DNA of 64,000 nucleotides from Methanobacteriota archaeon (GTDB taxonomy: Archaea; Thermoplasmatota; Thermoplasmata; RBG-16-68-12; JAJISG01). The translations under genes were made by a program, and so were the position numbers. The notes beneath the pieces were generated by a model. It searched no databases, was not told the DNA's origin, and worked only from the letters and a program-made list of their open reading frames with translations. Location: NCBI GenBank assembly GCA_030594205.1, contig JAUVFR010000001.1, positions 71,870 through 135,869 of the forward strand, given 5' to 3'. This document shows positions 4,378-56,987 of this stretch, piece by piece (position 1 is the first letter of the stretch; every line of letters begins with the position of its first letter).

Positions 4378-4401
4378 CGGCTCGACCACGGGATGCTGCG
4401 G

Positions 4402-11086: not shown

Positions 11087-11126
11087 CGGCCAGCTGAGAT
11101 TCTGACCCTTGATAATGGTTTGGCCT

Positions 11127-11831
11127 TTACACCGCTGTCGCCGACGGTCGCCAGATGCGCGCTTGGATTTGGCCGGTCCGGATCTTCTCGTAGAAGGGGC
11201 AGTCGGGCCCAACGGGGCAGACAAGGCAGCGGGGGAGCCGGGCGGTGCACGTCTCGCGACCGAACCGGATGAGGGCCAGGTGCGCCTCTCGGCGCTGCTC
11301 CGGGGGAATGCGAGCCTTCCACGCCTCCGTGATGTCCTCGTAGCGCCGGCCCGGATCGATCTCCCACCGTTGGGCGATTCGCCAGATGTGCGTATCCACC
11401 GGCATGGTGGGGTAGTCCCCAACCATGGCGAGGACGACATCGGCTGTCTTGGGTCCGATGCCATTGAGCGCCATCAGCGCCGCCCGAGCCTGTTCCAGGG
11501 GGGGCCGAATGAGTCGGAGGAGATCGCCCTGGTACCGATCGAGGAGATGCTGGGCAAGCGCCTTCAGCCACTTTGCCTTGGCGGTGTAGAGACCGGCGGG
11601 ACGGAGTGCCCGTTCGAGATTCTCCACGCCGGTGGCCGCCACCCGCTCGGGCGTGATCCCGACGGAGTCCCGGAGGTTCTGGAGGGCCCTCCGTTCGTTC
11701 TGGACCGTGGTGTTCTGGGAGATGACTACGGAAACGAGAACCTCGAAGGGGTCCCTCCTTTGCGTCCAGTCCTGGGCGGGATACCTCCGAAGCACCGTTG
11801 AAAGAGCGCGGCGTGAGGTCTTCTCGTCCAT
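11127..11831 (-). CDS. nth: Endonuclease III (HhH-GPD DNA glycosylase/AP lyase with 4Fe-4S loop)
   Basis: The HhH-GPD region ([13 protein letters not shown]) and a C-x6-C-x2-C-x5-C cluster ([17 protein letters not shown]) are present. Confidence 0.88.
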
Positions 11832-24655: not shown

Positions 24656-24737
24656 TTCTGTACTAGTCTCTTTGGAAATCGATGCCGGGGTGTGTGGCTA
24701 TGACTGGTTCTAAGTAGGCTAAGGGAGTCTGGCCTAC

Positions 24738-24810
24738 GGGCTCGTAGGGTAGTGGACTATCCTTCCGGCCTTCGGAGCCGGGGACCTGGGTTCGAATCCC
24801 AGCGGGCCCG
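24738..24810 (+). tRNA. tRNA-Arg (anticodon TCG)
   Basis: Manual fold. The acceptor stem is GGGCTCG/CGGGCCC (one T-G wobble). The anticodon stem CCGGC/GCCGG has loop CTTCGGA, giving anticodon TCG. The T-arm is CTGGG-TTCGAAT-CCCAG with discriminator G. No encoded CCA. Confidence 0.85.
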
Positions 24811-24815
24811 TCCTA
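24795..24815. repeat. attL-like direct repeat (tRNA-Arg 3' end, AATCCCAGCGGGCCCGTCCTA)
   Basis: A 21-nt sequence identical to 28256..28276. Confidence 0.8.
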
Positions 24816-30034: not shown

Positions 30035-31213
30035 TTGGACGGTCCTGTGATCCTGGGCGCCGTCCGAACGCCCGTGGGCAAGTACGGACGGGCCCTCCGC
30101 GACGTTCCCGCCACCCGCCTAGGCGCCCTCGCCATCGAGGAGGTCGTGCGGCGGACTCGTGTCGATCCGACGGACGTGGAGGAGGTCATCATGGGCAACG
30201 TTATCCAGGCGGGTCTAGGCCAGGCACCCGCCCGTCAGGCGTCTCTCCTCGCCGGCCTCCCGGAGATGGTGGGTGCCGTCACGATCAACAAGGTCTGCGC
30301 ATCGGGCCTCAAAGCCGTGACCCTGGCTGCCGATACCATCCGGACGGGGGACCAAGACCTCGTCGTCGCAGGGGGCATGGAAAACATGAGCGCGGCCCCG
30401 TATCTGCTGCCCAAGGCCCGTTGGGGCTACCGGCACGGCAACGCAGAGCTAGTGGACGCGATGGTCCACGACGGACTGTGGGATGTGTACAACAACTTCC
30501 ACATGGGCATCACCGGCGAAGTCGTGGCGGAGAAGTACGGGATTACGCGAGAGGAGCAGGACGCCTTCGCCTACGAGAGCCACATGCGGGCGCTGAGCGC
30601 GATCAAGCAAGGCCGATTCGAGGCGGAGATCGTCCCGGTTCCGCTCGAGAGACCGGAGGGAGAAGCCCTCTTCGAGGTGGACGAGGGGGTCCGACCGGAC
30701 ACCTCCCTCGAAAAACTCGCCCGCCTGCCTGCTGTCTTTCAGGAGGGGGGCTCGGTCACCGCGGGGAACTCCTCCCAGCTGAGCGACGGGGGCGCCGCCG
30801 TCGTGGTCGCCTCGGCGGATCGGGCTGACGAGATGGGCGCCAAGCCCCTGGCCCGCATCCTCGGGTACGCCACAGGCGGCGTCTCCCCGAGGAACGTCAT
30901 GGAAGCCCCCATTCCCACGGTCAACGCGCTGCTCCAGAAGCTGGAGCTGACCATCCACGACTTCGACCTCTTCGAGCACAACGAGGCCTACGCCGCCGCC
31001 TCCCTTGCCGTCGCCCGACAGCTCGAGATTCCCATGGACAGGCTGAACGTGAACGGCGGAGCCGTCGCCCTCGGTCACCCCTTGGGATGCACGGGGGCCC
31101 GCATCCTGACGACCCTCCTCCACGCCATGCAGGATCGCGGTGCCCGACGCGGTCTCGTGACCCTCTGTCTTGGTGGCGGGAACGCCGTGGCCGTCGCCGT
31201 CGAGACGACCTAG
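30035..31213 (+). CDS. Acetyl-CoA C-acetyltransferase (thiolase II)
   Basis: The catalytic Cys context (NKVCASGLKA) is present, with C-terminal GHPLGCTGARIL and CLGGGNAVAVAVE. Confidence 0.92.
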   Translation: MDGPVILGAVRTPVGKYGRALRDVPATRLGALAIEEVVRRTRVDPTDVEEVIMGNVIQAGLGQAPARQASLLAGLPEMVGAVTINKVCASGLKAVTLAADTIRTGDQDLVVAGGMENMSAAPYLLPKARWGYRHGNAELVDAMVHDGLWDVYNNFHMGITGEVVAEKYGITREEQDAFAYESHMRALSAIKQGRFEAEIVPVPLERPEGEALFEVDEGVRPDTSLEKLARLPAVFQEGGSVTAGNSSQLSDGGAAVVVASADRADEMGAKPLARILGYATGGVSPRNVMEAPIPTVNALLQKLELTIHDFDLFEHNEAYAAASLAVARQLEIPMDRLNVNGGAVALGHPLGCTGARILTTLLHAMQDRGARRGLVTLCLGGGNAVAVAVETT

Positions 31214-31281
31214 CGCCCCCGAACCACCCGGAAAGCCTTTTAGGTTCGAGCCTGTTTCTTCATGGTTTGACCGGTTCCCCC

Positions 31282-34200
31282 ATGCTCCACACCGTAACCA
31301 AGCAAGGCTCCAAGGCGGACATCCTCGACCTGATGGAGGATCTCGTCCGGCGCTGGTTCGACCACAAGTTCGAGACTTTGACGGAACCCCAGGCCTACGC
31401 GGTGCCCCTGATCCACGCGGGGGAAAACGTCATCGTCTCCTCGCCGACGGGCTCCGGGAAGACGCTGACGGCCTTCCTTTCCATCATCAACGAACTCTAC
31501 GCCATCCAGAAGAAAGGCGAGCTCGAGGACAAGATCTACTGCCTCTACGTCTCCCCCCTGAAGGCCCTGGCCAACGACATCAACCGAAACCTACGCGAAC
31601 CTCTGGCGGAAATGGAGGCCTTGGCGGACGAGGAGGGGCTCGAGTCACCTCAGATCCGGGTCGCCGTTCGGTCCGGGGACACGTCTTCCAGCGAACGGCA
31701 GAAGCAAGCCCGCCGCCCGCCGCACATCTTCATCACGACCCCCGAATCGCTGGCCATCATCCTCTCCACACCCGTCTTCCGCCGGAAGTTCCAGGACGTC
31801 CGCTGGGTCATCCTGGACGAGATCCACGAGATCTGCTCCAACAAGCGAGGGGCCCATCTGTCCCTCAGCCTCGAGCGGCTCGGGGAACAGGTCAACGCCC
31901 CCTTCCTCCGCATCGGCCTATCCGCGACCATCGCGCCCATGGAGGAGGTGGCCAAGTTCCTGGCGGGGTACGAGGACGGGCGCCTCCGTCCGATGAACGT
32001 CGTGGAGGTGGAGAGCCAGAAGCGGTTGGACATGCGCGTCCTCTGCCCGGTGCGGGACATGACGTCCCTTCCCTTCGAGGTCGTCAACGCCCGGATGTAC
32101 GACCAGCTGAAGGGGATGATCGACGACCACCGAACGACCCTCATCTTTACGAACACCCGCAGCGGGACGGAGCGGCTCTCTATCAAACTCAAGGACCGGG
32201 GGGTGGAGGACCTCGAGGCGCACCACGGGAGCCTGAGCAAGTCCGTACGCCTGGACGTGGAGGAACGCCTCAAGGCGGGCAAGCTGAACGCCGTCGTCTC
32301 CTCCACCTCCTTGGAGTTGGGCATCGACATCGGGTACATCGACCTCGTCGCCCAGGTGGGCTCGCCCAAGTCGACTGCCAAGGGGCTACAGCGGGTCGGG
32401 CGGGCGGGCCATGCCTACGGCAACGTGAGCGTCGGACGCCTCATCGTGTTCGAGAACGACGATTTGCTGGAGTGCGCCGCCCTCGTGCGAGCGGCCTACG
32501 AAAACAGCATCGATCGGGTGGACATCCCCACCAACTCGTTGGATGTCCTCGCCCAAACCCTCGTCGGCATGAGCCTCGAGCAGCGGTGGGAGATTGACGC
32601 GGCCTTCGCCTTGATCCGGCGATCCTACTGCTACCGCCGCCTCCCCCGGAAGGACTTCCTCTCCGTCCTCCGGTACCTCTCCAGCCGGAACCCCGACGTT
32701 TCCGTCTATGCGAAAATCTGGCTCGACGAGGAGGAGGGCCGGTTCGGGCGGAAGCGCGGGAGCCGCATGATCTACTTCACGAACGTGGGAACGATTCCGG
32801 AGGAGGGGAACTACCGGGTCATCACCCACCACGGGGTCACCATCGGGACCCTCTCCGAGAAGTTCGTGGAGCAGCTGACCCGGCACGACGTCTTCGTCCT
32901 CGGCGGACGAACCTATCGGTTCGAGCGGGTTCGGGGGATGAAGGCCTTCGTCAAGGACGCCTCGGGCCGCCGTCCCACTGTACCCTCCTGGACCGGGGAG
33001 ATGCTCCCACGGAGCTTTGACCTCTCCCTGCAGGTGGGCCGTCTCCGGCAAGAGACCCTCCGGCGTGTGGACGGGGAGGGAGAGGCCGCGGCCATGGCCT
33101 GGCTCGAGGAGACGTGCCGGGTGGACCACGGATCCGCCCGTAGCCTCGTGAATTACCTGCTCGAGCAGCGGGCCATGGTCCCCCAGTTGCCGACGGACGA
33201 AGCCGTGGTCCTGGAGGGCTACATCGACATCCGGGGGAACCGAAACATCGTCTTTCACTACTGCTTTGGCCGCCGGACCAACGATGCCCTCGCCCGGGCC
33301 TACGCTTTCGTAATCTCCAACGCCCTGGAGTGTAACGCCCGTGTCTCCGTCACCGACGACAACTTCATGGTCACGATCCCGAAGCGGGCGAACCTGGAGG
33401 AGATCGTCGGTCTCCTGAAGAGCCACGAGCTCGAGGACCTCTTGCGCCGGGCCCTCCGGAACACGGAACTCTTCAAGCAGCGCTTCCGCCACTGTGCCAC
33501 GCGGAGCTTCATGATCCTCCGAAACTACCGGGGCCATCAGGTCTCCGTCGGGCGGCAACAGATCCGCTCCCAACGGGTGCTGGACTGGCTCCACGAGCTG
33601 GAGGACTTCCCGGTCATTCAGGAGAGCTACAACGAGATTCTCAATGACGTCATGGACCTCCACCACGCCCGACAGGTCCTCCAGGGGATCGAGGAGGGTC
33701 GGATCCAGGTCCACCTGACCTCCTGGTCCAACGTCCCCTCCCCCCTCGCCCACAACGTGGTGTTGGCCGGCATCAGCGACATCGTCCTCATGGAGGACCG
33801 GAGCGCCATGCTTCGGGACCTGCACCGCAAGGTCCTCCGACGGGTCGTCCCCGAGGAGCAACTGCAGGAGGTCCAGTTCACGGAACAGCAGGTCCAGGCG
33901 TACTTCCGCCAGAAGGCTCCGCGGGTTGCTTCTCGCGAGGACATCCTCCCCCTCCTGGAGAAAACGGGCGCTCTCAATCTGCTCCAGCAGAAGGGTCGAA
34001 ACGTCTACGACCTGGCCGAGGCCGACCCCGAGACCGTCCGGGCGTGGTGTGAGGAGCTGGTCGAGGAGGGCAGGGTCGCCTCCGTGTGGACACCCAAGGG
34101 CGTTCTCTGGGTTTCCACCACGGATGTGCCCGCCTACGCCGCCGTGTACGCTCGACCGCGGCGGCCGCGAACCCGCGATCGCCGGGTTCTGGATCACCTC

Positions 34201-36681
34201 GAGGAAGGGGCCAAGACGGCGAAGGAACTCGGTCGGGAACTCGAGGCGCCCCGGGTCGAGGTGAACGACGCCCTCCGCCGCCTCGAGCGGGGCTACCGTT
34301 TGGCCCGGCGAGGGCTCGCGGAGCCGGCCTACGAACCCCGGGAGGTGGAGGCCGACCGGTTCGAGGAGGCGTTGGACCGCCTGGTGGTCCGCTTGCTTGA
34401 GTTCCAGGGGCCGATGACCCTCGAGGAACTCGCGTACGAACTCGATCTGAAGGGGGAGATGCTCCAGGAGGCGTTGAACGGCTTGGTGAACGAGGCCACC
34501 CTCGCCTCGGGGCACTTTGTGGTGGACGAGGCGTACCAATACCTGGTCGCCCAAGACCTCCGCCGACTCGAGGCTCGAGAACAAGCGCTCCCCACCTTCG
34601 AGGAGACGGCGGTCCGGTCGTATCTCCTGGCCAAGCATTTCGAACGCCTCGACTCCGTGGATGCCTACTTCGATCGCTTCCTGGAGGCGGGGATCCTCTT
34701 CGACGTCTTCCAACGGGTCGAGGGCTTCGACATGGAAGATTGGTACCGCCGGCGGGAGGCGGGGGAGATCCTGGAGGGCCGGTTCCTCCGTGGACGAGTG
34801 CGGTACGTGCGGCGGGAGGAGGCTTCCCTCTTCGCCTCGGCCTACCGGCGCCCGCCGCTCGGGCCGCTGGAGGAACGCGTACTGACGGCGGTTGCCCGGG
34901 AAAACGGCCTCGACCTCGACCAGGTTACCGAGGCGGTGGGAGCCGACCGGGGGCGCGTGAAGGAGGCGCTGCATGCGTTGGACCGGGGCCTTCACATCAT
35001 CCGCAAGTTCACCGGCAGCGACGCCTGGACGACGAAGAACATCTACGTGGCCTACGAACCGGCGGACGAGCTGCCTGACGCCCAGGAGGCCATTGTGCGG
35101 CGGTTCCTCCGGGCATACGGCCCCGTGAGTCCCGCCGGCGTCAAGGGTTACGCCGGGTTCGGGTACGCCGAGACGGAGGGGCTCGTGGAACGCCTTCTCG
35201 AAGAGGGGGTCGCCACGAAGATCCTCGTGCAGGGGGACGGCGATGTCGAGATGCTTCTCCTCACCGAGGAGCTGCCGGCGCTCCAGGAAGTCCCCGCGCG
35301 GGCGCCCTCTGACAGGTTGCGAATCCTCTCCCTCCAGGATCCGTGGATCCGGCCGATGTGGGCGGAGGTCAACAGTCGATACGGCGACGGCTGGTACTAT
35401 CCTGTGGTCAAGGACGGCAAGCTCGTGGGGATGGTGGAGAAGTGGCAGATGAGCGGGTGTCTCGAGGTCCGAGAGATCGAACTGGACGACCCGGGGCTGC
35501 TGCCGGAGCTCCTGGTCGCGGTGCAAGGGATGATGGGCTTCTACGCGCAACGAGGCTACGAGATCGTTCGGGTCGTGGGCGCCTTCGGGAAGTCAGTCCT
35601 AGATGCCGGAGTCTCCGAGGCCTTCGAGGAGGCGGGCTTCCATCCGACAAACGACTTCTTCGCCTGGGGGGAGATGATCCCCCAGCAGCACTCGTGGGAG
35701 GAGGTTCTCAGTTACGTCTTCTACCGCCAGGGCATCCATCCGGACCGACGATTCAAGGACGCCTTTGCGGCCATCGAGGCCCTGGGAGGCCTCCGGTCCG
35801 ACTTCGCCTCGCTCCTGCGGACCCGACGGTTCACCCCGCTGAAGGAACTCTTTGAGAAGGGCCTCGTGGCGAAGGGCGTGGCCATTCCCCCCTACGTCAC
35901 GTACTGTACGGAGGAAGACCTGGAGCTCTACCGCGCGGCCAAGTCCGTGCCGATGGAGGAGGACATGGAGGAGGTGTGGGAACTCATTCGGGAGGGCGAA
36001 CCCATCTCGAAGGGGCGCCTGGTCGCCCTTGCCCCATTCCCCGAGGCGGTGACGGAGCGCGCCTTGCAGAAACTGCATAGGGCCTCCCACGTGACCCGGG
36101 ATCCGCGCCACAGGTACCGTACCGTGGGCGATGCAGGGCTCGAGCCATTGGAGGCGAAGAAGGTCGTCCTCCGGAAGGTCTTCGAGGCCTACGGCATCTT
36201 CAGCGCCGAGAACCTGGGGGCCTACACGCGGGGCCACTTCCGCATGGGGGAGATTCGGCGGATTCTCCGGGAGCTGGAGCGGGAGGGCGTCTTGGTCAAG
36301 GGGTTCTTGATCGAGGGAGAACCGGCGGTGTATTGGATGCTGAATGACGGCCTCCTGGGGAAGACGCCCTACAAGGGCCAGTTCGTCCTTTCGCCTTGGG
36401 ACAACCTCTCTTTCTACCTCCGGGATTACCTCCATGAGCGATGGCGGATGGGGAGTTGCTACGCGGCCTTCGATGGCTCCCGGTCCGTCGCGGCCTTCAA
36501 GGCACGCAAGCGGGGCGACGAGCTCGTGATCACCGAGTACCAGGGGGACTCCGCGGCCCAGGAGCTTCTCCGCGCGTTCGCGTACCAGAACGACCTGGCT
36601 CTCCATGCCGAAGGGGAGGAGGCGGACGAGTGGGAGCTGATTCGCTGGTACGAGCGCATGTATGGAGGGGTACGGGAGTAG
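31282..36681 (+). CDS. lhr: Lhr-like ATP-dependent DNA helicase, long form (1799 aa; SF2 helicase core + Lhr domains + about 900-aa C-terminal extension)
   Basis: Walker A (SSPTGSGKT), DEIH, motif VI (QRVGRAGH) and Lhr-core conservation up to about residue 900 are present. A long C-terminal region contains winged-helix-like segments. The start is ATG 31282, because the track ORF start at 31087 overlaps the thiolase. Confidence 0.88.
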   Translation: MLHTVTKQGSKADILDLMEDLVRRWFDHKFETLTEPQAYAVPLIHAGENVIVSSPTGSGKTLTAFLSIINELYAIQKKGELEDKIYCLYVSPLKALANDINRNLREPLAEMEALADEEGLESPQIRVAVRSGDTSSSERQKQARRPPHIFITTPESLAIILSTPVFRRKFQDVRWVILDEIHEICSNKRGAHLSLSLERLGEQVNAPFLRIGLSATIAPMEEVAKFLAGYEDGRLRPMNVVEVESQKRLDMRVLCPVRDMTSLPFEVVNARMYDQLKGMIDDHRTTLIFTNTRSGTERLSIKLKDRGVEDLEAHHGSLSKSVRLDVEERLKAGKLNAVVSSTSLELGIDIGYIDLVAQVGSPKSTAKGLQRVGRAGHAYGNVSVGRLIVFENDDLLECAALVRAAYENSIDRVDIPTNSLDVLAQTLVGMSLEQRWEIDAAFALIRRSYCYRRLPRKDFLSVLRYLSSRNPDVSVYAKIWLDEEEGRFGRKRGSRMIYFTNVGTIPEEGNYRVITHHGVTIGTLSEKFVEQLTRHDVFVLGGRTYRFERVRGMKAFVKDASGRRPTVPSWTGEMLPRSFDLSLQVGRLRQETLRRVDGEGEAAAMAWLEETCRVDHGSARSLVNYLLEQRAMVPQLPTDEAVVLEGYIDIRGNRNIVFHYCFGRRTNDALARAYAFVISNALECNARVSVTDDNFMVTIPKRANLEEIVGLLKSHELEDLLRRALRNTELFKQRFRHCATRSFMILRNYRGHQVSVGRQQIRSQRVLDWLHELEDFPVIQESYNEILNDVMDLHHARQVLQGIEEGRIQVHLTSWSNVPSPLAHNVVLAGISDIVLMEDRSAMLRDLHRKVLRRVVPEEQLQEVQFTEQQVQAYFRQKAPRVASREDILPLLEKTGALNLLQQKGRNVYDLAEADPETVRAWCEELVEEGRVASVWTPKGVLWVSTTDVPAYAAVYARPRRPRTRDRRVLDHLEEGAKTAKELGRELEAPRVEVNDALRRLERGYRLARRGLAEPAYEPREVEADRFEEALDRLVVRLLEFQGPMTLEELAYELDLKGEMLQEALNGLVNEATLASGHFVVDEAYQYLVAQDLRRLEAREQALPTFEETAVRSYLLAKHFERLDSVDAYFDRFLEAGILFDVFQRVEGFDMEDWYRRREAGEILEGRFLRGRVRYVRREEASLFASAYRRPPLGPLEERVLTAVARENGLDLDQVTEAVGADRGRVKEALHALDRGLHIIRKFTGSDAWTTKNIYVAYEPADELPDAQEAIVRRFLRAYGPVSPAGVKGYAGFGYAETEGLVERLLEEGVATKILVQGDGDVEMLLLTEELPALQEVPARAPSDRLRILSLQDPWIRPMWAEVNSRYGDGWYYPVVKDGKLVGMVEKWQMSGCLEVREIELDDPGLLPELLVAVQGMMGFYAQRGYEIVRVVGAFGKSVLDAGVSEAFEEAGFHPTNDFFAWGEMIPQQHSWEEVLSYVFYRQGIHPDRRFKDAFAAIEALGGLRSDFASLLRTRRFTPLKELFEKGLVAKGVAIPPYVTYCTEEDLELYRAAKSVPMEEDMEEVWELIREGEPISKGRLVALAPFPEAVTERALQKLHRASHVTRDPRHRYRTVGDAGLEPLEAKKVVLRKVFEAYGIFSAENLGAYTRGHFRMGEIRRILRELEREGVLVKGFLIEGEPAVYWMLNDGLLGKTPYKGQFVLSPWDNLSFYLRDYLHERWRMGSCYAAFDGSRSVAAFKARKRGDELVITEYQGDSAAQELLRAFAYQNDLALHAEGEEADEWELIRWYERMYGGVRE

Positions 36682-36725
36682 GCCGCGACTCCAGCCGAGC
36701 CTTGGAAACCTGAAATAGCTAGGCA

Positions 36726-37484
36726 TTGTTGAATGTCGTGGTGAACCACGAGTTCTTCGCGGCCGGCGCCGTGGGCATCGGTCCGGCCCTTCTCCTTATG
36801 TTCTACACGCTCCGCCGATATGAGTACCCGTTCGTGGAGAAGGCCCTCTTCCGCAGCGAGCGGCTGTTCCTCAGCTTCGCCATCGGGCTGGTGGTCGGCG
36901 TGGTGGCCGCCGTGATTTTCAACTTCTTCCAGATCAATACGACCGTCGCAGCCCTCCTCGCCCTCCTGGCCGTGGCGGTCTTCGAGGAGTCCTTCAAGAT
37001 CGTGTATCTGAACTACAAGCTCTTCCGCGGAAACTTCGACACGGTGTTTTACGGCCCCGGGTTAAGTCTCGGCATCGCGGCCACCTTCAGCATGGCCTTC
37101 GCCTTCCAGGTCTTTACCCAGCCGGACGTCCCACTCGGCGCGCTGGCCGTCAACGTGACGGTACTCGTCCTCCTATCCCTGGGTCTGAACGCCCTTCATT
37201 TCTATACGGGGTCCGTCCAGGGGGCGGGGGCGGGCGGAGGGACGCCCTGGCGATCGTACTTCCAGTCCATGGGTGCCCGGGCGGTCTTCGCCCTGTTGCT
37301 CGCCCCCTTCCTGGCACCCTTCCAGATCCCCAACCCCGCGGTGCTTGTGGGCTTCCTCCTCGTGGCGGTGGGCTTTGCGGTGTATCTGTTCTGGAACGCC
37401 TACAGACGCGTGATTCCGAACGCCCTCCCCTCGGACGTCCGTCGTCGGCTCCGCCGGCAGCCCGCGGGCAAGGAGGCGAGTTAG
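36726..37484 (+). CDS. Polytopic membrane protein, possible PrsW-family intramembrane metalloprotease
   Basis: About 7 TM helices. An EExxK motif (VFEESFK) and an FxxxH motif (LHFYTG) are present, as in PrsW/M82. The evidence is weak. Confidence 0.4.
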   Translation: MLNVVVNHEFFAAGAVGIGPALLLMFYTLRRYEYPFVEKALFRSERLFLSFAIGLVVGVVAAVIFNFFQINTTVAALLALLAVAVFEESFKIVYLNYKLFRGNFDTVFYGPGLSLGIAATFSMAFAFQVFTQPDVPLGALAVNVTVLVLLSLGLNALHFYTGSVQGAGAGGGTPWRSYFQSMGARAVFALLLAPFLAPFQIPNPAVLVGFLLVAVGFAVYLFWNAYRRVIPNALPSDVRRRLRRQPAGKEAS

Positions 37485-37485
37485 G

Positions 37486-37971
37486 TCAACCCAGGAATAC
37501 CAGGGCGGCGACGCACGCCCCGTAGTGGTCCATGGGCACGGAGAGGTCCTGAATCTGGTAGCGAATCGTGCCGAACTCGACCTCGCGGTGGCGCGCCATC
37601 TCTTCGATTTTCCACTCGAGGATTTCCTCCAGGGCCCCTCGGGTCCCGTACATGTGCCCTTCCGCCACGTACCCATGTCCCCCGCCCTTGCGGAAGGCGA
37701 ATGCGATCCCGGCCGCGATCATCTCCCCCTCGTTTCCCCGCATCTGAGCCAGGACGGCGTAGGTGATCATCCCGGCGGGCAGGGTCTTCGGGTTGATCTC
37801 TCGGATGCCGGGAGGCAGTACCGAGGAAACGGAGACCAGGTTCTGCTCGCCGATGCCGGCCCCGATGAGGGCCTTGTCGAAGGCGTTGAGGTCGGATACC
37901 GGACTGACGGCTCCGGCCCCCGTCACGAAGAACCGGGAGGGAACGGGGACCATGGGATCGGTCTCGCCCAT
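37486..37971 (-). CDS. pdaD: Pyruvoyl-dependent arginine decarboxylase
   Basis: The self-cleavage site VSVSSVLPPG (Ser-Ser) is present and the 161-aa product is collinear with MJ0316-type PdaD. Confidence 0.8.
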   Translation of the reverse strand: MGETDPMVPVPSRFFVTGAGAVSPVSDLNAFDKALIGAGIGEQNLVSVSSVLPPGIREINPKTLPAGMITYAVLAQMRGNEGEMIAAGIAFAFRKGGGHGYVAEGHMYGTRGALEEILEWKIEEMARHREVEFGTIRYQIQDLSVPMDHYGACVAALVFLG

Positions 37972-38006
37972 GTCGAATTTACCCGAGCCGCGGACTTAAA
38001 CGTTTC

Positions 38007-38492
38007 TCAGGCGGGAAGGGCCTTCCGCATCCGGCAGGCGTCCTCGCCCCAGGAGTAGTATCCCTCCAACAGGCCGTCCGTTTCGTATCCGAGGCGCTCG
38101 TAGAAGGCGATGGCGGCCTCGTTGTGGACGCCGACTTCCAGGAGCATGACGCGAGCCCCCTTGTCTCGCATGAACTCCTCGGCCTGCCGCATGAGTTCCG
38201 CACCGATGCCCTGACGGCGATGACCCGGGAGGACGCCGAGGGAGACGACCCGTCCCACCTCGCCCTCCTGCCGGAGCATGACGGTGCCGACCGGATGCCC
38301 GTCGACATAGTACAGGTAGGTGGACCCCTGGGGGTTCTTCAGGGTCCAGATGATGTGGGCCTTGGAGAATCCGCGCCGCCCGAAACACTTCTTCTCGATC
38401 TTGTAGAGGGCAGGGACGTCGGAGAGGTCCGCCTGGCGGAGCACGGTGCAGCAATCCGCGCGGGATATTTCAGCGTATCCCGGTTCTCGCAC
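38007..38492 (-). CDS. GNAT-family N-acetyltransferase (RimI-like)
   Basis: The acetyl-CoA binding region RRQGIGAELM...AFYERLGY is present. The probable GTG start gives 161 aa. The remainder of the 414-aa track ORF is antisense to asnS. Confidence 0.7.
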   Translation of the reverse strand: MREPGYAEISRADCCTVLRQADLSDVPALYKIEKKCFGRRGFSKAHIIWTLKNPQGSTYLYYVDGHPVGTVMLRQEGEVGRVVSLGVLPGHRRQGIGAELMRQAEEFMRDKGARVMLLEVGVHNEAAIAFYERLGYETDGLLEGYYSWGEDACRMRKALPA

Positions 38493-38531
38493 AACGTATA
38501 AGAGCGTCCAATCTGCTGGGAGGGAAGTTCG

Positions 38532-39830
38532 ATGACCGAGCGCGTGCCCATCGGGGACATCCTGCGGGGCGATCGCACGGGCCAGTCGGTGAAAGTGCGC
38601 GGCTGGGTGTACCGCACTCGATCCAGCGGCGGCATCGCCTTTCTCCTCCTCCGGGACGCCACCGGGGTTGTCCAATCGACCTTCCGGAAGGAGGAGGTGG
38701 GGGACACCCTGTTCGCCGCCATCGAGGCGACGGGGCGGGAGGCGGCGGTCGTAATCGAGGGGACGGTGGCCGAAGACAAGCGTGCGCCCGGAGGGTACGA
38801 AGTTCGGGGGTCCGCCTTCGAGGTCGTGGGCCCTTCCGCGAACTTCCCTATCGCCCGGGACCTCAGCGAGGAATTCCTGTTGGACGTCCGTCACCTCTGG
38901 ATTCGCTCCCGGCGCATGACGTCCGTTTTCAAGGTCCGCTCGACCGTCTTCCGGGCCATCCACGACTACTTTCGGGAGGAGGGGTTCTACGAGGTCCAGG
39001 CCCCCATCATTACGCCCGTGGGGAGCGAGGGCGGCTCGAGTCTCTTCCAGGTCCGCTACTTCGATCGGGATCTCCACCTGACCCAGAGTTGGCAGCTGTA
39101 CGCGGAGGCCCTGGTCATGGCCCTCGAGCGCATCTACACGATCGCCCCCTCCTTCCGCGCCGAGAAGTCGCGGACCCCACGCCACCTGACGGAGTACTGG
39201 CACGCGGAGATGGAAGTGGCCTGGGAGGGGATGGAGGAAGCCCTGAGGCACGGGGAGGGGGTCATCACCCGGGCTGCCCAGGAGGTGGCGGCCCGCAACG
39301 AGGCGGAGCTGGCCTACCTCGGGCGGGACGCGGACTATCTGCGCAGCATCCGACCGCCCTTCCCGCAGATCACCTACGATGAGGCCCTAGAGCGGCTGCA
39401 GGGCCAGGGTGTGGAGATCGAGTGGGGGAAAGACCTTCGGACGCTCGAGGAGCGGGCCCTCGGGGAGATGTTTGACCTACCCGTAATCGTAACTCACTAC
39501 CCGAAGGAAACCCAGGCCTTCTACAAGCGCACGGACCCGGAGGATCCCGATCTCGTCTTGGCCTTCGACTTCATCGCGCCCGGACGCGGCGGGGAGCTCA
39601 TCGGCGGTTCCGAGCGGGAGCCCGACCTAGAAGTGCTGAAGGCGAACCTCGTACGGACGGGAGAGGACCCGAAAGCCTATGACTGGTACCTGGACACCCG
39701 TCGCTACGGCTCCGTGCCCCACTCCGGCTTCGGCATGGGAGTGGATCGGCTCGTGCAGTGGGTGTGCGACCTCGAACACATCCGGGATGCCATTCCGTTC
39801 CCCCGAACGCCGACGCGGTACGCGCCGTGA
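38532..39830 (+). CDS. asnS: Class IIb aminoacyl-tRNA synthetase, most likely asparaginyl-tRNA synthetase (archaeal AspRS not excluded)
   Basis: An OB-fold N-terminus (VKVRGWVYRTRSSGGIAFLLLRD), motif 2 (FRAEKSRTPRHLTEYW) and motif 3 (GSVPHSGFGMGVDRL) are present. LTQSWQLY resembles the AsnRS motif LTVSGQL more than the AspRS motif QSPQL. Confidence 0.8.
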   Translation: MTERVPIGDILRGDRTGQSVKVRGWVYRTRSSGGIAFLLLRDATGVVQSTFRKEEVGDTLFAAIEATGREAAVVIEGTVAEDKRAPGGYEVRGSAFEVVGPSANFPIARDLSEEFLLDVRHLWIRSRRMTSVFKVRSTVFRAIHDYFREEGFYEVQAPIITPVGSEGGSSLFQVRYFDRDLHLTQSWQLYAEALVMALERIYTIAPSFRAEKSRTPRHLTEYWHAEMEVAWEGMEEALRHGEGVITRAAQEVAARNEAELAYLGRDADYLRSIRPPFPQITYDEALERLQGQGVEIEWGKDLRTLEERALGEMFDLPVIVTHYPKETQAFYKRTDPEDPDLVLAFDFIAPGRGGELIGGSEREPDLEVLKANLVRTGEDPKAYDWYLDTRRYGSVPHSGFGMGVDRLVQWVCDLEHIRDAIPFPRTPTRYAP

Positions 39831-39841
39831 CCCGGTGTGAC

Positions 39842-41008
39842 CTAGGCCTCCGCTCTCTCGAGCTCTCCCAGTAACTCGTGGGCAATGATCATCTTCTGGA
39901 TCTCGTTCGTCCCCTCGTAGATGCCCAGGATCTTCGCATCCCGGAAGTGCCGCTCCACCGGGTACTCGCCGGAGAAGCCGTACCCCCCGTAGATCTGTAC
40001 GGCTCGGTCGGCGCATCGGACGGCCATCTGGGCCCCGAAGAGCTTTGCCAGGCTCACCGCGAGGCGGTTGTCCTCGCCCTGGTCACGCAACCAGGCCGCC
40101 TTCAGATAGAGGAGCCGGGCCGCCTCCACCTCGACGGCCATCTCTGCGATCATCTCCCGGATCAGTTGGAATGCGCCAATCGGTCGGTCGAACGCCCGCC
40201 GTTCTCGGGCGTGCTCGAGGCTGAGCTCGAGGCAAGCCTGCCCAATTCCCACGGCCCCCGCCGCCACCCCGAGGCGTCCATGGTTCAGGACGTACATGGC
40301 CGTTTCCCACCCCTCCCCTTGTCTCCCGATGAGGTGGTCGGCGGGAATGCGACAGTCGTCAAAGGCGAGGTCCGCCGTCGGGGAGGCGCGCAGTCCGAGT
40401 TTCGTGTTCGTCTCCACGTTCGTGACGTGGAAGCCGGGCGTTCCCTGTTTTACGAGGAATGCGGAGATGCCGTCCTGACGCGCGGTGCCCGGCTCCCGGG
40501 CGAACACGACGACGTACTCGGCCAGGTTGCCGTTGCTGATGAACCGCTTGGCGCCGTTGAGGACCCACTCGTCCCCCTCTCGCTTGGCGGTGGTCCGCAG
40601 GTTGGCCGCGTCGGACCCGGCATCGGGCTCTGTGAGGGCCCACGCCCCTAGGAACTCCCCGCGCGCCAAGGGGGCAAGGATCGTCTTCTTCTGCGCCTCC
40701 GTCCCGGCGGCCAGGAGGGTCGTTCCGGCCAAGGAGGTCTGAACGGAGAGGGTGGTCCGTAGCGAGTTGCATCCTCGCGCGATCTCCTCCACCACCAAGG
40801 CAAAGCTCACGTAATCGAGGCCCGCACCTCCGTAGTCCTCGGGAATGGGAATGCCGAAGAAGCCGAGATCGGCCATCTTCTCGGTCACGGTCTGGGGGAT
40901 CGCCCCCTTCTCCTCCCACGCCTTCACGTGGGGGATGACCTCCTTGTCGACAAACGAGCGTGCCGTCTCCCGAATCAGTTTCTGCGCTTCGGAGAGCTGG
41001 AACTCCAC
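39842..41008 (-). CDS. Acyl-CoA dehydrogenase
   Basis: A 388-aa product with ACAD N/M/C domain conservation (GAWALTEPDAGSD, the catalytic Glu region YEGTNEIQ). Confidence 0.9.
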   Translation of the reverse strand: MEFQLSEAQKLIRETARSFVDKEVIPHVKAWEEKGAIPQTVTEKMADLGFFGIPIPEDYGGAGLDYVSFALVVEEIARGCNSLRTTLSVQTSLAGTTLLAAGTEAQKKTILAPLARGEFLGAWALTEPDAGSDAANLRTTAKREGDEWVLNGAKRFISNGNLAEYVVVFAREPGTARQDGISAFLVKQGTPGFHVTNVETNTKLGLRASPTADLAFDDCRIPADHLIGRQGEGWETAMYVLNHGRLGVAAGAVGIGQACLELSLEHARERRAFDRPIGAFQLIREMIAEMAVEVEAARLLYLKAAWLRDQGEDNRLAVSLAKLFGAQMAVRCADRAVQIYGGYGFSGEYPVERHFRDAKILGIYEGTNEIQKMIIAHELLGELERAEA

Positions 41009-41112
41009 GCCCTCACCCGTTCCGCCTACGGGGGGCCGCTTCCTTAAAGGCTTCTCAGGCCACCGTCGGCACCGGCAAGGGCTTATCTCGGCGAGTGGTC
41101 CGACCCGAAGCT

Positions 41113-41619
41113 GTGCAACTCTCCGACGCCGACGTCCGGGTCTGGATGATGGATGGGAAACTCCAGATCAAGGGGTTCCGCGACGGAAACCTGACCCCCA
41201 ACGGCTACGATCTCACGGTCGCCGAGCTCGCTCTCCCCGACGCCGACACTTCGAAGACGGAGGGTTCCCTCGAGATCCCTCCCAAGACCCGGTTTCTCGT
41301 TAGTACGGAGGAGGAGGTCCACCTGGGCCCACGCGTCGCGGGCGACCTCTGGCTTCGCACGACCTGGGCCCGTCAGGGGGTCCTCCCCGCCTTCGGGAAG
41401 GTGGATGCGGGGTTTGAGGGCACCCTCACCCTCTCGGCCTACAACGCCTCGGAACGGCCGCTCGAGATTGCCGTGGGCGACACCTTTGCGCAACTCACCT
41501 TCCACGAGGTGCGTTCGTTGCCCGAAGCCACGTACGCCGAGAGTTCCGGCACGTACCAGGGGCAATCCGGGGTCACGCCGGCCCGATCACCAGATCGAAA
41601 GCGAAGTGGGCCTGAGTAG
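41113..41619 (+). CDS. dcd: dCTP deaminase (dUTPase-fold)
   Basis: TPNGYDLTV and the dUTPase-like beta-strand motifs are present. The probable GTG start at 41113 (…QLSDADVRVWMMDGKLQIKG) is used, because the track ORF start at 40960 overlaps the divergent ACAD gene. Confidence 0.7.
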   Translation: MQLSDADVRVWMMDGKLQIKGFRDGNLTPNGYDLTVAELALPDADTSKTEGSLEIPPKTRFLVSTEEEVHLGPRVAGDLWLRTTWARQGVLPAFGKVDAGFEGTLTLSAYNASERPLEIAVGDTFAQLTFHEVRSLPEATYAESSGTYQGQSGVTPARSPDRKRSGPE

Positions 41620-42577
41620 GCGAGTATCCCCGGACCTCCCGAACGCCGTCCACCTCCAGACTCCGGTCCTCGGGGATGCTCGCCCGCAACGTCTCGATCC
41701 GCTCCTCGCGCTCCGCGCGTTCCAGGATCTCGTAGTAGTGGAGGACTCCTCCGTCCTTGAGGGCGCCCACGGAGAGGGGCACGTAGGGAAGAGGGTCCCA
41801 AGGATAGTCAAGGATGAACCGATCCGCCGGCTCGAACTGGGGAACGACGTCCTCAATGGATCCCTCCAACGGGATTACGGCGTCCGCCCGATTGCGGCGG
41901 ACGTTCTCTCGGAGGAATGCCACGGCTCGAGGATTCGCGTCCACGGCGTAGACCCGACCGGCCCCCGCCTGGTCGGCGTGGAGGGCAAAGGGGCCCACGC
42001 CACTGAAGGCGTCCACCACCACTTCCGGGCCTCGGATGAGTCCAGCGACCCGACGCCGCTCGGACGCCACCCGGGGAGAGAAATGAACCTCGGCCGGGTC
42101 CAGCGCGAGGGCTAGGCCGAATTCGTGGTGGAGGGTCCGGGTCTCCCTTCGGCCCGCGATGACCCGAAGAGCGCGCTCTCGGTACGAACCTTGTACCCCC
42201 TCGTCCGCGGCGACGGTCCTCGCCCCGCGATGCATCTGCAGGAACGCGTCCCCGATCGCGGCTTCATAAGGTCGGAGCGCCTCCGGCAGCCGAACGATGA
42301 CCACTTCGCCCACCACGTCGAATGCGCGCGGGAGAAGGGGTCGCAGGTCCTCTGGCACGCGTACGAGGTCCCGATACGTCCGCGGTCGGCTCGCGCGTAC
42401 GTCGAGGTTCACCGATTCGATGGGGTAGCCGAGGGGCTTTTCCTGGGTGACGGGGATAAGCAGTTCTCCGTTCCGCTCGACGATCTTTCGATCCAGCCGG
42501 AGCACCCCGGCCTCTCTGAACCGACGACGCGCCGCTTCGCCCTCCTCCTTGGGCACGACCGCGACGTAGGAAGCCAC
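41573..42577 (-). CDS. trm5: tRNA (guanine37-N1)-methyltransferase, Trm5/TYW2 family
   Basis: Class I SAM MTase motif I (VVDAFSGVGPFAL), DANP and Trm5-type N-terminal domains are present in a 334-aa product. Confidence 0.75.
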   Translation of the reverse strand: MASYVAVVPKEEGEAARRRFREAGVLRLDRKIVERNGELLIPVTQEKPLGYPIESVNLDVRASRPRTYRDLVRVPEDLRPLLPRAFDVVGEVVIVRLPEALRPYEAAIGDAFLQMHRGARTVAADEGVQGSYRERALRVIAGRRETRTLHHEFGLALALDPAEVHFSPRVASERRRVAGLIRGPEVVVDAFSGVGPFALHADQAGAGRVYAVDANPRAVAFLRENVRRNRADAVIPLEGSIEDVVPQFEPADRFILDYPWDPLPYVPLSVGALKDGGVLHYYEILERAEREERIETLRASIPEDRSLEVDGVREVRGYSPTQAHFAFDLVIGPA

Positions 42578-42612
42578 GGGCTCCGCATGGCGCCGCGGGG
42601 CCTAAGGGTTCC

Positions 42613-43260
42613 GTGAGGACCGCGAGCCCGTTCCGGATAAAGCCTTATACACCCTCATCGAGTTGGCCCCTCGGAGAATCCGTGGCGGGAGTCCTTCGAA
42701 CTTCTTGGAAGGCCCTCCTCGCGCAGGCCTTTCGCCGGTACTTCGTCAACACCGTCTTCGATTCCACGTTCGTCTCGATGGGGATCGTCGTCGCGTCGGC
42801 CCTGGTTCCCGACTCGAGCGTGGGGACCGTAGTCGGCACGATGTTCGCCGTCAGCCTGGCCCTCGGGATCTCCACGGGCACCAGCGTGTACGAGGCGGAG
42901 AAGGTGGAAGCGGAAATCCGGCTCCGCGAACTGGAGCGCGCTATGCTCACGCCCCTAGACGGGACGGAAGCAACGCGCGTGCTGGATGTCTCCCGATACA
43001 TCGTCGTCACGGTCAACGCCGTGGCCCCCCTGGCCGTCTTCGTTGCGACCGCTTCCCCCTTCTTTCTCTCCTCCTCCCTGACCATTCTCGGGATTCCCAC
43101 CGCTTTTTTCTCCGTGGCCATCGCCATGGTGGTGCTCTTCCTGGTCGGCACCTATCTCGGGCGGCTTACGGGTCGGCCGGCCTGGCTCAAGGGGTTGCGC
43201 ATGGCCGTCATTGGGATCGCGACTTTCGGGGCCATCTGGATCATCCAGGGCCTCTTCTAG
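42613..43260 (+). CDS. VIT1/CCC1-family (DUF125) membrane protein
   Basis: YFVNTVFDSTFVSMGIVVASALV matches the VIT-family N-terminal motif, and 4-5 TM helices are predicted. Confidence 0.5.
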   Translation: MRTASPFRIKPYTPSSSWPLGESVAGVLRTSWKALLAQAFRRYFVNTVFDSTFVSMGIVVASALVPDSSVGTVVGTMFAVSLALGISTGTSVYEAEKVEAEIRLRELERAMLTPLDGTEATRVLDVSRYIVVTVNAVAPLAVFVATASPFFLSSSLTILGIPTAFFSVAIAMVVLFLVGTYLGRLTGRPAWLKGLRMAVIGIATFGAIWIIQGLF

Positions 43261-50818: not shown

Positions 50819-52414
50819 TCAGGCCTGGGTAGCCAGCGCGGCCTGGACCAGTCCGTAGTGGATCGGGGACGGGCGCAGGGGTCGGGAGGTGAACTCCGGA
50901 TGGAACTGCGAGGCGAGGAAGTAAGGATGGCCTTCCAGCTCGAGGATGTCCATCCGTCGGCCGTCCTCGGACCGGGCGACGTACCGCAGGCCGGCCCCCT
51001 CCAGCTTGGACAGGAAGGAAGGGTTGATTTCGTACCGATGGCGATGGCGCTCGTAGATGGACGTGCTCCCGTAGAGCTCGTGGGCCTTGGACCCCTCTTC
51101 GATGACCACCTCGTGGGCCCCCAGACGCATCGTGGCGCCCATGTCCTCGACCCCCTGTTGCTCCGGGAGTAGGTCCACGACTGGGTAGGGCGTCTCGGGG
51201 TCGAACTCGCTGCTGTTCGCACCCTCTAGCCCGAGGACCGATCGTGAGAACTCGATGGTGGCGAGCTGGAAGCCGAGGCAGACCCCCTGGAAGGGGATTC
51301 CCTGTTCCCGGGCGTACCGAATGGCCCGAATCTTGCCCTCAATGCCCCGCTCACCGAAGCCGCCTGGGACGAGGATGCCCTGCGTTCCTTCGAGGAGCCC
51401 CACGCCGTCTTCTTCCAGGTCAACGCTCTCGACCCACCGGATGTTCACCCGGGCGTTGGCCTTGGCGCCGGCATGTTGGAAGGCCTCCAGGTGACTGATG
51501 TAGGAGTCTTGGAGGTGGGTGTACTTGCCCACGAGTGCGATCTCCACCTCGCCCTCGGGGTTCCGGAGGCGCTCCACGAAGGCCTTCCATCCCCCCAGGT
51601 CCTGGGACGTCCCTTCGAGGGCCATCTGTTTCAGCAGGTAGTCGGTCAGGCCTTGCTGCTCCAAGATCATCGGAACCTCGTAGATGTTGCCGGCGTCCGG
51701 GGCGCTGACGATGCCCTCGACCGGCACGTCACAGAAGAGGGAGATTTTCTGCTTCACGTCATCATCCAACTCGACGGGCGCGCGGGCCACGATCGCGCTG
51801 GGGTGGATCCCCGCGGCCCGCAGCTCCCTCACGCTGTGCTGGGTCGGCTTGGTCTTGGGCTCGCCTACCACAGGGAGGATGGGAACCAGGGTCGTGTGCA
51901 CGAAGACGCAGTTCTCCTTCCCCTCGTCGATGGAGAGTTGCCGCATGGCCTCGAGGAAAGGCATGGACTCGATGTCACCCACGGTGCCTCCGATCTCGAC
52001 CAGGGTGACATCCACCCCCGCCGACTCGGCCGCCTCCCGGATCATCCGCTTGATCTCGTCCGTCACGTGGGGAATGATCTGGACCGTGCTTCCCAGGTAG
52101 TCCCCGTGGCGCTCCTTCTCGATGGCCGCGAGGTACGCCTTCCCTGTGGTGATGTTGTGGTCACGGCTCAGCCTAACGTCCAGAAACCGCTCGTAGTTGC
52201 CCAGGTCGAGGTCGACCTCGCCGCCGTCCTCCAGCACGAAGACCTCCCCATGCTGGAAGGGATTCATGGTCCCCGCATCCACGTTCAGGTAGGGATCGAT
52301 CTTGATGGCAGTCACGGAGAGGCCGCGGCTTTGCAGGTTGCGGCCGATACTGGACGTGGTGATGCCCTTTCCCAAACCGGACAAAACCCCGCCGGTCACG
52401 ATGATATATTTCAT
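50819..52414 (-). CDS. pyrG: CTP synthase
   Basis: A 531-aa product with the N-terminal synthetase domain ([16 protein letters not shown]) and the GATase domain catalytic Cys (GVCLGFQ). Confidence 0.95.
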
Positions 52415-53347: not shown

Positions 53348-54538
53348 ATGCTGGTAGGCATCGTTGGAAAACCCAACGCCGGGAAGAGCACGTTCTTCGC
53401 GGCTGCCACTCTGGCACCCGTCGACATCGCCGATTACCCGTTCACCACCATCAAGTCCAATCGCGGCATCGCATATGTGACCCGTCCCTGTCCCCACTCC
53501 GAGCTTGGCACGGAATGCAGCCCCCATAACGCGCCTTGCACGGAGGGAGTGCGCCTCGTGCCCCTCGACCTCCTGGACGTGGCGGGACTCGTCCCGGAGG
53601 CCCACAAGGGACGGGGCCTGGGCAACCAGTTCCTGGACGACTTACGCCAAGCGTCGGCCTTCGTTCACGTCGTGGACGCCAGCGGTGCGACCGACCGGGA
53701 GGGAAACATCGAATCGCCCGGGGACCACGACCCCACGGATGATGTCCAGTTCTTGGAGGACGAGCTGGCCTACTGGATCGCGGGCATCCTCGCCAAGGGA
53801 TGGGACAAGATGGCGCGTCGGGCGGAGATTGAGGGCGAGAACCTCGAGAAGCTGCTTTCGGAGAGGCTGACCGGCCTCGGCCTGCGGGAGGCCCAGGTCC
53901 ATCTCGCCCTACGGGACGTCGCCCTGGAGGGACCCCCGCGGCGTTGGAAGGAGGAGGAGCTTGTGCGACTCGCCCGGGAACTCCGACGCATCGGGAAGCC
54001 CATGATTCTCGCGGCCAACAAGGCCGACGTCGCACCGGAGGACGCCTTACAGAGCCTGCTCAACCTCCCAGATGTCCGCGTGATACCCACCTGCTCCGAG
54101 TGCGAGCTCGCCCTACGACGTGCCGCAAAGGCGGACCTTCTCGACTACGTCCCTGGGGCCTCCGCCTTCACGGAACGGACGGACGCGAGCCTCACGGGGG
54201 AGCAGAGGGAGGCGCTGCAGAAGATTCGTGGCTACCTCAATCGGCTCGGGTTTACCGGGGTCCAGCGCTGCCTGGAGGATCTCGTGTTTGACCAGATGGG
54301 CATGATAGTGGTTTTTCCCGTGGAGGACGAGAATCACTGGACGGACAAGGATGGGAACGTCCTGCCAGACGCGTTCTTGATGCCTCGCGGCAGTGTCACA
54401 AGGGACTTAGCATACCAGGTCCATACCGACCTTGGGGACAATTTCATCCGGGCGGTGGATGCGCGGACCAAGAGGGTCCTGGGTAAGGATTACGAGTTGC
54501 AGGATGGCGACGTGATTCGCGTCGTTGCGAGGTCGTAA
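53348..54538 (+). CDS. Obg-like GTPase/ATPase (YchF/OLA1-related, Ygr210 subfamily) with C-terminal TGS domain
   Basis: G1 (GKPNAGKST), G3 (DVAGLV), G4 (NKAD) and a C-terminal TGS (…GDVIRVV) are present. A Cys/His-rich insertion (CPHSELGTECSPHNAPC) follows G1. Confidence 0.8.
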   Translation: MLVGIVGKPNAGKSTFFAAATLAPVDIADYPFTTIKSNRGIAYVTRPCPHSELGTECSPHNAPCTEGVRLVPLDLLDVAGLVPEAHKGRGLGNQFLDDLRQASAFVHVVDASGATDREGNIESPGDHDPTDDVQFLEDELAYWIAGILAKGWDKMARRAEIEGENLEKLLSERLTGLGLREAQVHLALRDVALEGPPRRWKEEELVRLARELRRIGKPMILAANKADVAPEDALQSLLNLPDVRVIPTCSECELALRRAAKADLLDYVPGASAFTERTDASLTGEQREALQKIRGYLNRLGFTGVQRCLEDLVFDQMGMIVVFPVEDENHWTDKDGNVLPDAFLMPRGSVTRDLAYQVHTDLGDNFIRAVDARTKRVLGKDYELQDGDVIRVVARS

Positions 54539-54539
54539 C

Positions 54540-56927: not shown

Positions 56928-56987
56928 AACCCGGTCGTCGTAGGGACCAGAGAAACCCGAGTCACGCTCGAAACCGAGAAGGCGTAC

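Follow-up and report, generated by a model that had tools for sequence, protein, structure and literature searches.

The window analyzed here, a 64,000-nucleotide stretch of archaeal DNA (contig JAUVFR010000001.1), carries on its forward strand a complete coding sequence (CDS), 31282-36681 (+), for a long Lhr helicase of 1799 amino acids (aa) plus a stop codon. It was identified from the list of open reading frames (ORFs) and from its translation. Residues 1 to 860 are an archaeal-type Lhr-core. The C-terminal extension of 939 aa (residues 861 to 1799), hereafter the C-terminal domain (CTD) or tail, consists, by profile comparisons and structure models, of three tandem units derived from HTH_42 (the AlkZ/YcaQ-like family), containing nine winged helices (WHs) and two barrels. 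The initial annotation of this DNA had described a 1799-aa Lhr protein with a long C-terminal extension, and the division into a core plus 939 aa was confirmed by Pfam and by the NCBIfam model PRK13767. Its further proposal, that the core bears an AlkZ/YcaQ-like CTD rich in WHs, was borne out by Pfam and by AlphaFold2 (AF2) models searched with Foldseek. The tandem repetition of HTH_42, which is the reason for the extra length, had not been foreseen.

The Lhr-core lies at 31282-33861 (+) and was delimited by Pfam and PRK13767, against which it scored 1132 bits (cut-off, 849). Pfam matches were DEAD at residues 34-219 (RecA1), Helicase_C at 279-377 (RecA2), WH_Lhr at 405-565 (E = 2e-35), and DEAD_assoc, or Domain 4, at 636-823 (E = 2e-56). 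The superfamily-2 ATPase motifs I, II, III, and VI are intact: GSGKT at 57, DEIH at 179, SAT at 214, and QRVGRAGH at 370. The nearest solved structure to the core is that of Mycobacterium smegmatis Lhr (5v9x; E = 2.5e-134). The Escherichia coli Lhr equivalog model PRK09751 gave only 474.7 bits, far below its cut-off of 1496, with a best-scoring stretch confined to residues 313-934. The core is that of an archaeal superfamily-2 helicase of the PRK13767/aLhr2 type.

The plus-strand frame is open from 31087 to 36681, and the ATG at 31282 yields the 1799-aa product. PRK13767, whose 877 positions model the archaeal-type Lhr-core, enters the alignment at position 5 and covers residues 4-859; because the alignment begins at residue 4 of the product, the start at 31282 is supported. 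An alternative is that a sequencing or assembly error fused an Lhr-core gene to a separate HTH_42 gene; the initial annotation had itself named two merged genes as one of the outcomes that would overturn it. Such an error would fit the three database entries that start inside Lhr Domain 4 (P0005, P0026, and P0039) and the long-read metagenome-assembled genome (MAG) of a member of the Methanomassiliicoccaceae (L001, a 678-kb contig carrying P0026) in which Lhr was called as three pieces. However, the L001 pieces are collinear fragments of one Lhr gene, starting inside Domain 4, and a second gene on the same contig is also split. Furthermore, a single uninterrupted ORF extends from Walker A through the CTD to the C terminus at 58 related loci from independent species-representative genomes (1784-1945 aa; median, 1800). 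An exhaustive HMMER search with a profile of the tail only (E <= 1e-3) returned 406 clusters at 50% identity, of which about 40 have full-length representatives (1700-1940 aa) with an identical order of parts and a tail that begins near residue 900-930. The GC content shows no break where the Lhr-core meets the tail. The chance that the gene is an artefact of this kind is negligible in our judgment, and 31282-36681 is one genuine gene, not two merged.

The apparently stand-alone CTD proteins P0005, P0026, and P0039 were rejected as gene-call fragments, as each begins inside Domain 4. In L001 (7590-12982 and 14379-17408), the splitting of Lhr into three gene calls is probably due to indel errors, and genes for an OGG-type glycosylase and AP endonuclease 2, not seen in the window, are located 1.4 to 4.4 kb downstream of Lhr. 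Within the window, a 1054-aa antisense ORF, 32386-35550 (-), lies entirely inside the Lhr CDS and is most probably the shadow of a gene with 65% GC. Related loci repeatedly show antisense ORFs over Lhr as well, which is to be expected when the sense gene is conserved.

The tail divides into three parts. Unit N (residues 861-1100; 33862-34581, +), defined by hhalign, Pfam, and AF2, has three WHs without a beta-barrel. Module M1 (residues 1101-1460; 34582-35661, +; Pfam, hhalign, and AF2) and module M2 (residues 1461-1799; 35662-36678, +; hhalign, AF2, and Foldseek) are each a complete HTH_42 module of three WHs and a beta-barrel. An alignment of 28 relatives was cut into N, M1, and M2, and the parts were compared profile against profile with hhalign. 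N matched the first 237 positions of M1 with a probability of 98.3% (E = 1e-14), M1 matched M2 over 296 columns with the same probability (E = 1.4e-14), and N matched M2 with a probability of 97.5%. Hidden Markov models (HMMs) of the three parts cross-matched in most of the full-length relatives, and the order N-M1-M2 was conserved.

Pfam found WH and AlkZ-like matches between residues 920 and 1356 of the tail. Unit N gave an AlkZ-like match (E = 2.8e-6) and a TrmB/MarR-type WH at 967-1003, and the AlkZ-like match in M1 (E = 3.6e-11) covered HMM positions 19-252. Among family members, the AlkZ-like match was present in M1 of all 11 and in M2 of 7. M1 matched a YcaQ-plus-AlkX profile in hhalign with a probability of 73%, and unit N matched the WH2-WH3 region of the E. 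coli and M. smegmatis Lhr proteins weakly (38%). The sequences of both M1 and M2 retain LSPxD(P/N), the HTH_42 hallmark with which the barrel begins; M1 has LSLQDP at 1349. Searches of PDB sequences with the CTD and with the M1 and M2 profiles found nothing significant, AlkZ appearing for M1 at an E of 0.35; the fold assignment consequently rests on Pfam, hhalign, and AF2 with Foldseek. When YcaQ was used as the query to collect homologues for a diverse HTH_42 profile, only near-identical E. coli proteins were returned.

The AF2 model of the whole tail had a mean predicted local distance difference test score (pLDDT) of 86.9, with M1 at about 80-93. Its secondary structure comprises nine helix-helix-helix-hairpin units, three of them in unit N, and two strand-rich blocks. 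The top PDB structures found by Foldseek for the whole tail were the M. smegmatis Lhr-CTD (7lhl; E = 1.3e-13), DNA-bound AlkX/YcaQ (9zd6; E = 5e-13), and AlkZ (5uuj; E = 3e-12). M2 modeled alone had a pLDDT of 88 and a predicted template-modeling score (pTM) of 0.83. In this form it was closest to AlkX/YcaQ (9zd6; E = 5e-15; query-normalized TM score, 0.70-0.72), followed by AlkZ (5uuj; E = 9e-12; TM, 0.69) and the M. smegmatis Lhr-CTD (7lhl; E = 1e-8; TM, 0.52-0.58). The barrels of M1 and M2 (35326-35670 and 36385-36678) also gave weak Foldseek matches to the GNAT acetyltransferases 3tt2, 3fix, 3f0a, 2k5t, and 4pv6 (E = 0.006-0.1), and the HTH_42 "barrel" may have a distant GNAT-like relationship.

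The long bacterial Lhr proteins (bLhr-HTH; 1538 aa in E. coli and 1507 aa in M. smegmatis; structures 5V9X for the core and 7LHL for the CTD) have the same core order of RecA1, RecA2, WH, and Domain 4. They likewise follow the core with a C-terminal WH array that contains an AlkZ-like module of three WHs and a beta-barrel; as in the archaeal protein, the canonical QxQ motif is absent, and 7LHL is the top structural match of the whole archaeal tail. The initial annotation had noted this likeness and the greater length of the archaeal protein, and both hold, the difference being about 300 aa: 939 aa in the archaeal tail versus about 650 in bacterial Lhr. The bacterial CTD consists of WH2-WH3 plus one AlkZ-like module (PMC8053096), whereas here the first unit has three WHs instead of two and is followed by a pair of complete AlkZ-like modules instead of a single one, for totals of nine WHs and two barrels versus five WHs and one barrel. 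The approximately 300 additional residues are therefore one more complete HTH_42 module and the third WH of the first unit, and the extra length of the tail stems from internal repetition of the HTH_42 unit. The cues to which of the two modules is the counterpart of the bacterial one conflict: the Lhr-specific match WH4_Lhr on the third WH is commoner in M2 (8/11 family members, versus 2/11 for M1), but it is M1 that ends in a bacterial-like motif (EEAGF...WG, compared with EAGF...WG). The EEAGF at the end of M1 resembles the REAGF of E. coli Lhr. The tail has diverged so far in sequence that BLAST and hhalign comparisons with the E. coli Lhr-CTD, alone or together with that of M. smegmatis, were not significant.

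The aLhr2 proteins of Thermococcus barophilus and Methanothermobacter (the latter known as Lhr) share the same archaeal type of helicase core. Characterized aLhr2 proteins are core-only, at about 850-950 aa, whereas the protein described here has 1799. To our knowledge, no member of the long archaeal Lhr group has been studied biochemically. Hajj et al. 2021 reported that aLhr2 of the Methanomassiliicoccales has a longer C-terminal region that includes an HTH_42 domain (PMC8301817), and the window protein belongs to this long-aLhr2 lineage. However, these authors described "an additional HTH_42 domain," not three tandem HTH_42-derived units (PMC8301817), and the searchable literature yielded no account of the N-M1-M2 tandem arrangement.

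A survey of 185,579 species genomes of GTDB gave 208 stretches coding for a relative of the tail, of which the best 80 all come from Thermoplasmata, Methanomassiliicoccales, Methanomethylophilaceae, Natronoplasma, or Saliniplasma. In addition, positions 32570-42646 of the window have 94% DNA identity to JAZGDV010000074.1, a contig of a Thermoplasmata archaeon MAG. Because of this match and the taxonomy of the best 80 relatives, the host is an archaeon. The N-M1-M2 layout is conserved across Thermoplasmata. Lhr proteins of 1895 aa in Odinarchaeota and "Ca. Asgardarchaeum" (P0132/P0207/P0209) have N, M1, and a partial M2. The "unusual" length claimed in the initial annotation was overstated: with 208 stretches, 406 clusters, and Asgard relatives, the 1800-aa form is the norm of its lineage, and long aLhr2 proteins had been reported before (PMC8301817). 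A still longer Lhr of 2344 aa (P0107/P0205) has a fourth WH triplet at residues 1970-2200. Fragments of long archaeal Lhr proteins bear the names "AlkZ-like" or "YcaQ family" at NCBI.

The protein is a conserved single chain in which an intact Lhr motor is joined to three HTH_42-derived units, and we think it fairly probable that the tail is a platform for binding DNA or lesions and for assembly. By analogy with characterized Lhr proteins, the core would translocate 3'-to-5' on single-stranded DNA and unwind forks or RNA:DNA hybrids. The tail, again by analogy, would bind duplex DNA or lesions and self-associate, placing the motor at damaged or stalled DNA. Both the crosslink resistance and the assembly of the M. 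smegmatis protein involve its CTD, which is essential for resistance to mitomycin C and cisplatin and nucleates a tetramer (PMC9841417, PMC8053096). In E. coli, the Lhr-CTD has no QxQ yet acts as a uracil-DNA glycosylase, with a dependence on D1536 (PMC10953399).

The HTH_42 glycosylases are defined by the motifs (Q/H)-phi-Q (AlkZ-like), Q-phi-D (YcaQ-like), or H-phi-(S/T)-(D/E) (PMC9040887). In YcaQ/AlkX the Gln and the Asp are both essential, and the motif lies on the first strand of WH1 (PMC13303869); in E. coli YcaQ it is Q45-I46-D47. Compared with AlkZ (5UUJ) and AlkX/YcaQ (9ZD6), M1 and M2 have the same fold of three WHs and a beta-barrel and share the LSPxD motif at the barrel entry. 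AlkZ and AlkX/YcaQ, however, are stand-alone monomers of ~370-410 aa, whereas here a helicase carries two such modules and a partial one. The archaeal modules also have one shorter WH1 helix and lack some of the length of the DNA-binding loop. The Q-phi-Q or Q-phi-D of these enzymes is replaced by R-S-D in M2 and by A-G-I-L in M1. In M2, Arg1505-Ser1506-Asp1507 (35794-35802, +) was aligned by hhalign with the Gln-Ile-Asp that is catalytic in YcaQ/AlkX: GGL-R-S-D paired with LL-Q-I-D in two collinear alignments, one with YcaQ and one with YcaQ plus Thermobifida fusca AlkX (T. fusca AlkX; probability 26%, E = 7e-4, 310 columns). Both AF2 models put R-S-D where it would be expected, at a beta-bridge between helices 1 and 2 of WH1, and it is invariant in relatives down to about 35% identity. 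In M1, the topology puts A-G-I-L at the catalytic positions, within an EAGILFD segment (1135-1141) at the place of the YcaQ catalytic strand, and the conserved Glu1135 and Asp1141 are nearby. Unit N has no equivalent of the catalytic motif and no barrel.

Several of the results weigh against the explanation favored here. None of N, M1, and M2 has QxQ, QxD, or Hx(S/T)(D/E), and the Gln that is essential in YcaQ/AlkX is Arg in M2. Among 44 distant representatives (50% identity), about three quarters retain the Arg and only ~60% an Asp/Glu. The residue mapping, in which we have only moderate confidence, comes from low-probability profile alignments (26%) and secondary-structure topology. The end of M1, AGFHPTNDFFAWG, has a weak 13-residue match by eye to the C terminus of E. 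coli Lhr, AGFSSSPQGLDWG, and from this weak match the M1 counterpart of the E. coli catalytic Asp1536 appears to be a conserved Ala. The pTM of the whole CTD in AF2 is 0.53, and the geometry between modules is uncertain. Finally, when all ORFs of 79 related loci were clustered, no conserved repair-gene neighbor emerged. The suggestion in the initial annotation of a specialized crosslink repair enzyme is so far unsupported, there being neither a QxQ/QxD motif nor such a neighbor.

A rival explanation, which corresponds to the specialized interstrand crosslink (ICL) repair enzyme of the initial annotation, is an active glycosylase array: either or both of the complete HTH_42 modules would remove damaged bases or unhook ICLs, with the helicase delivering or processing the substrate. 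In its favor, the AlkX/AlkZ fold is complete in M2 (TM about 0.7) and the Asp at the QxD position is invariant among close relatives, both modules keep LSPxD(P/N), the E. coli CTD is a glycosylase despite having no QxQ (PMC10953399), and crosslink resistance in mycobacteria depends on the Lhr CTD (PMC9841417). These points are offset by the missing canonical Gln, by the limited conservation of Asp/Glu at the site in the wider family, and by the gene neighborhood, since no Nei2-, MPE-, ligase-, AP-endonuclease-, or lyase-type partner is conserved beside the gene in the 79 loci. We regard an active array as possible and, on balance, unlikely. That the tail has glycosylase activity of any kind is likewise a minority expectation, and a noncatalytic role in DNA binding or oligomerization is somewhat more likely. 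If there is any glycosylase chemistry, M2 would be its likeliest seat, a speculative assignment made because M2 is closest in fold to AlkX/AlkZ and keeps the Asp of R-S-D at the Q-I-D position.

The tail might also be purely architectural, with HTH_42 modules that replace or modify the contacts of the bacterial tetramer and take no direct part in lesion recognition or catalysis. For example, four AlkZ-like modules, the number in the bacterial tetramer, would already be present in a dimer of the archaeal protein, as each chain has two complete modules here and one in bacteria. The tetramer nucleated by the M. smegmatis CTD is required in vivo, gel shifts showed no DNA binding by that CTD (PMC8053096, PMC9841417), and the catalytic motif of the archaeal modules is degenerate, all of which agree with this explanation. 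On the other hand, the fold of M2 is nearer to that of the monomeric, DNA-bound AlkX than to that of the tetrameric Lhr-CTD (TM, 0.72 versus 0.55-0.58), and Arg is strongly conserved on the DNA-facing catalytic strand. We consider a solely architectural tail distinctly improbable, and we continue to favor a platform that both binds DNA or lesions and promotes assembly. More specific still, and in our view a long shot, is that the two modules process lesions at two sites, e.g., one module per ICL strand with a noncanonical Arg/Asp site, after which the motor separates the strands, or, alternatively, that duplication exchanged the bacterial tetramer for a dimer. If the two-site proposal were true, the protein would be a self-contained helicase-glycosylase machine for crosslink repair, specific to Thermoplasmata and some Asgard archaea.

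The long archaeal Lhr is an interesting variation on an enzyme already known; it does not represent a system of a new kind and will be no surprise to the specialist. Nevertheless, the role of the Lhr CTD is debated, having been seen as a scaffold, a uracil glycosylase, or a crosslink sensor. A lineage in which the HTH_42 unit has been tripled, and in which the terminal module resembles the active crosslink glycosylases in fold more closely than does the mycobacterial CTD, offers a natural experiment on this question. The separable N, M1, and M2 are suited to dissecting DNA binding, catalysis, and oligomerization. HTH_42 was thought to be almost absent from archaea, with 12 sequences in a 2022 survey (PMC9040887), but, fused to helicases, HTH_42 modules turn out to be widespread in this domain of life.

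The Lhr gene follows genes for a DUF885 protein and a thiolase on the same strand. Reading of the sequence gave a 68-bp intergenic leader after the thiolase gene (31232-31281, +), and the A/T-rich CCTTTTAGG, which precedes the ATG by ~40 bp, could be an archaeal TATA box. Downstream, in order, are a 252-aa membrane protein, an arginine decarboxylase and a GNAT protein (both on the opposite strand), and an aspartyl-tRNA synthetase. The 252-aa ORF (36726-37484, +) starts 45 bp past the Lhr stop and encodes a multi-pass membrane protein without a Pfam match. Homologues of it lie downstream of Lhr in 31 of the 79 related loci, at distances from 45 to ~5000 bp, and because of this frequency and spacing it looks like a case of synteny, not an operon partner. 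The clustering of the 79 loci recovered only inherited synteny, consisting of the membrane protein, the aspartyl-tRNA synthetase, the arginine decarboxylase, and the thiolase.

Rfam and tRNA scans revealed nothing related to the Lhr gene; the sole RNA gene found in the window is a tRNA-Arg (anticodon TCG) at 24737-24813 (+). Elsewhere in the window are genes for an HdrD-like CCG/4Fe-4S protein (2302-4389, -), a succinate dehydrogenase/fumarate reductase flavoprotein (9383-11464, -), a CTP synthase (50819-52414, -), and a family-B DNA polymerase with DNA_pol_B and exonuclease domains (54525-56927, +). A 928-aa antisense ORF without a Pfam match lies over the polymerase gene (54444-57230, -). 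The HdrD-like, flavoprotein, and CTP synthase genes are housekeeping genes, and with the neighbors of Lhr they argue for an ordinary chromosomal region and against a mobile or defense island.

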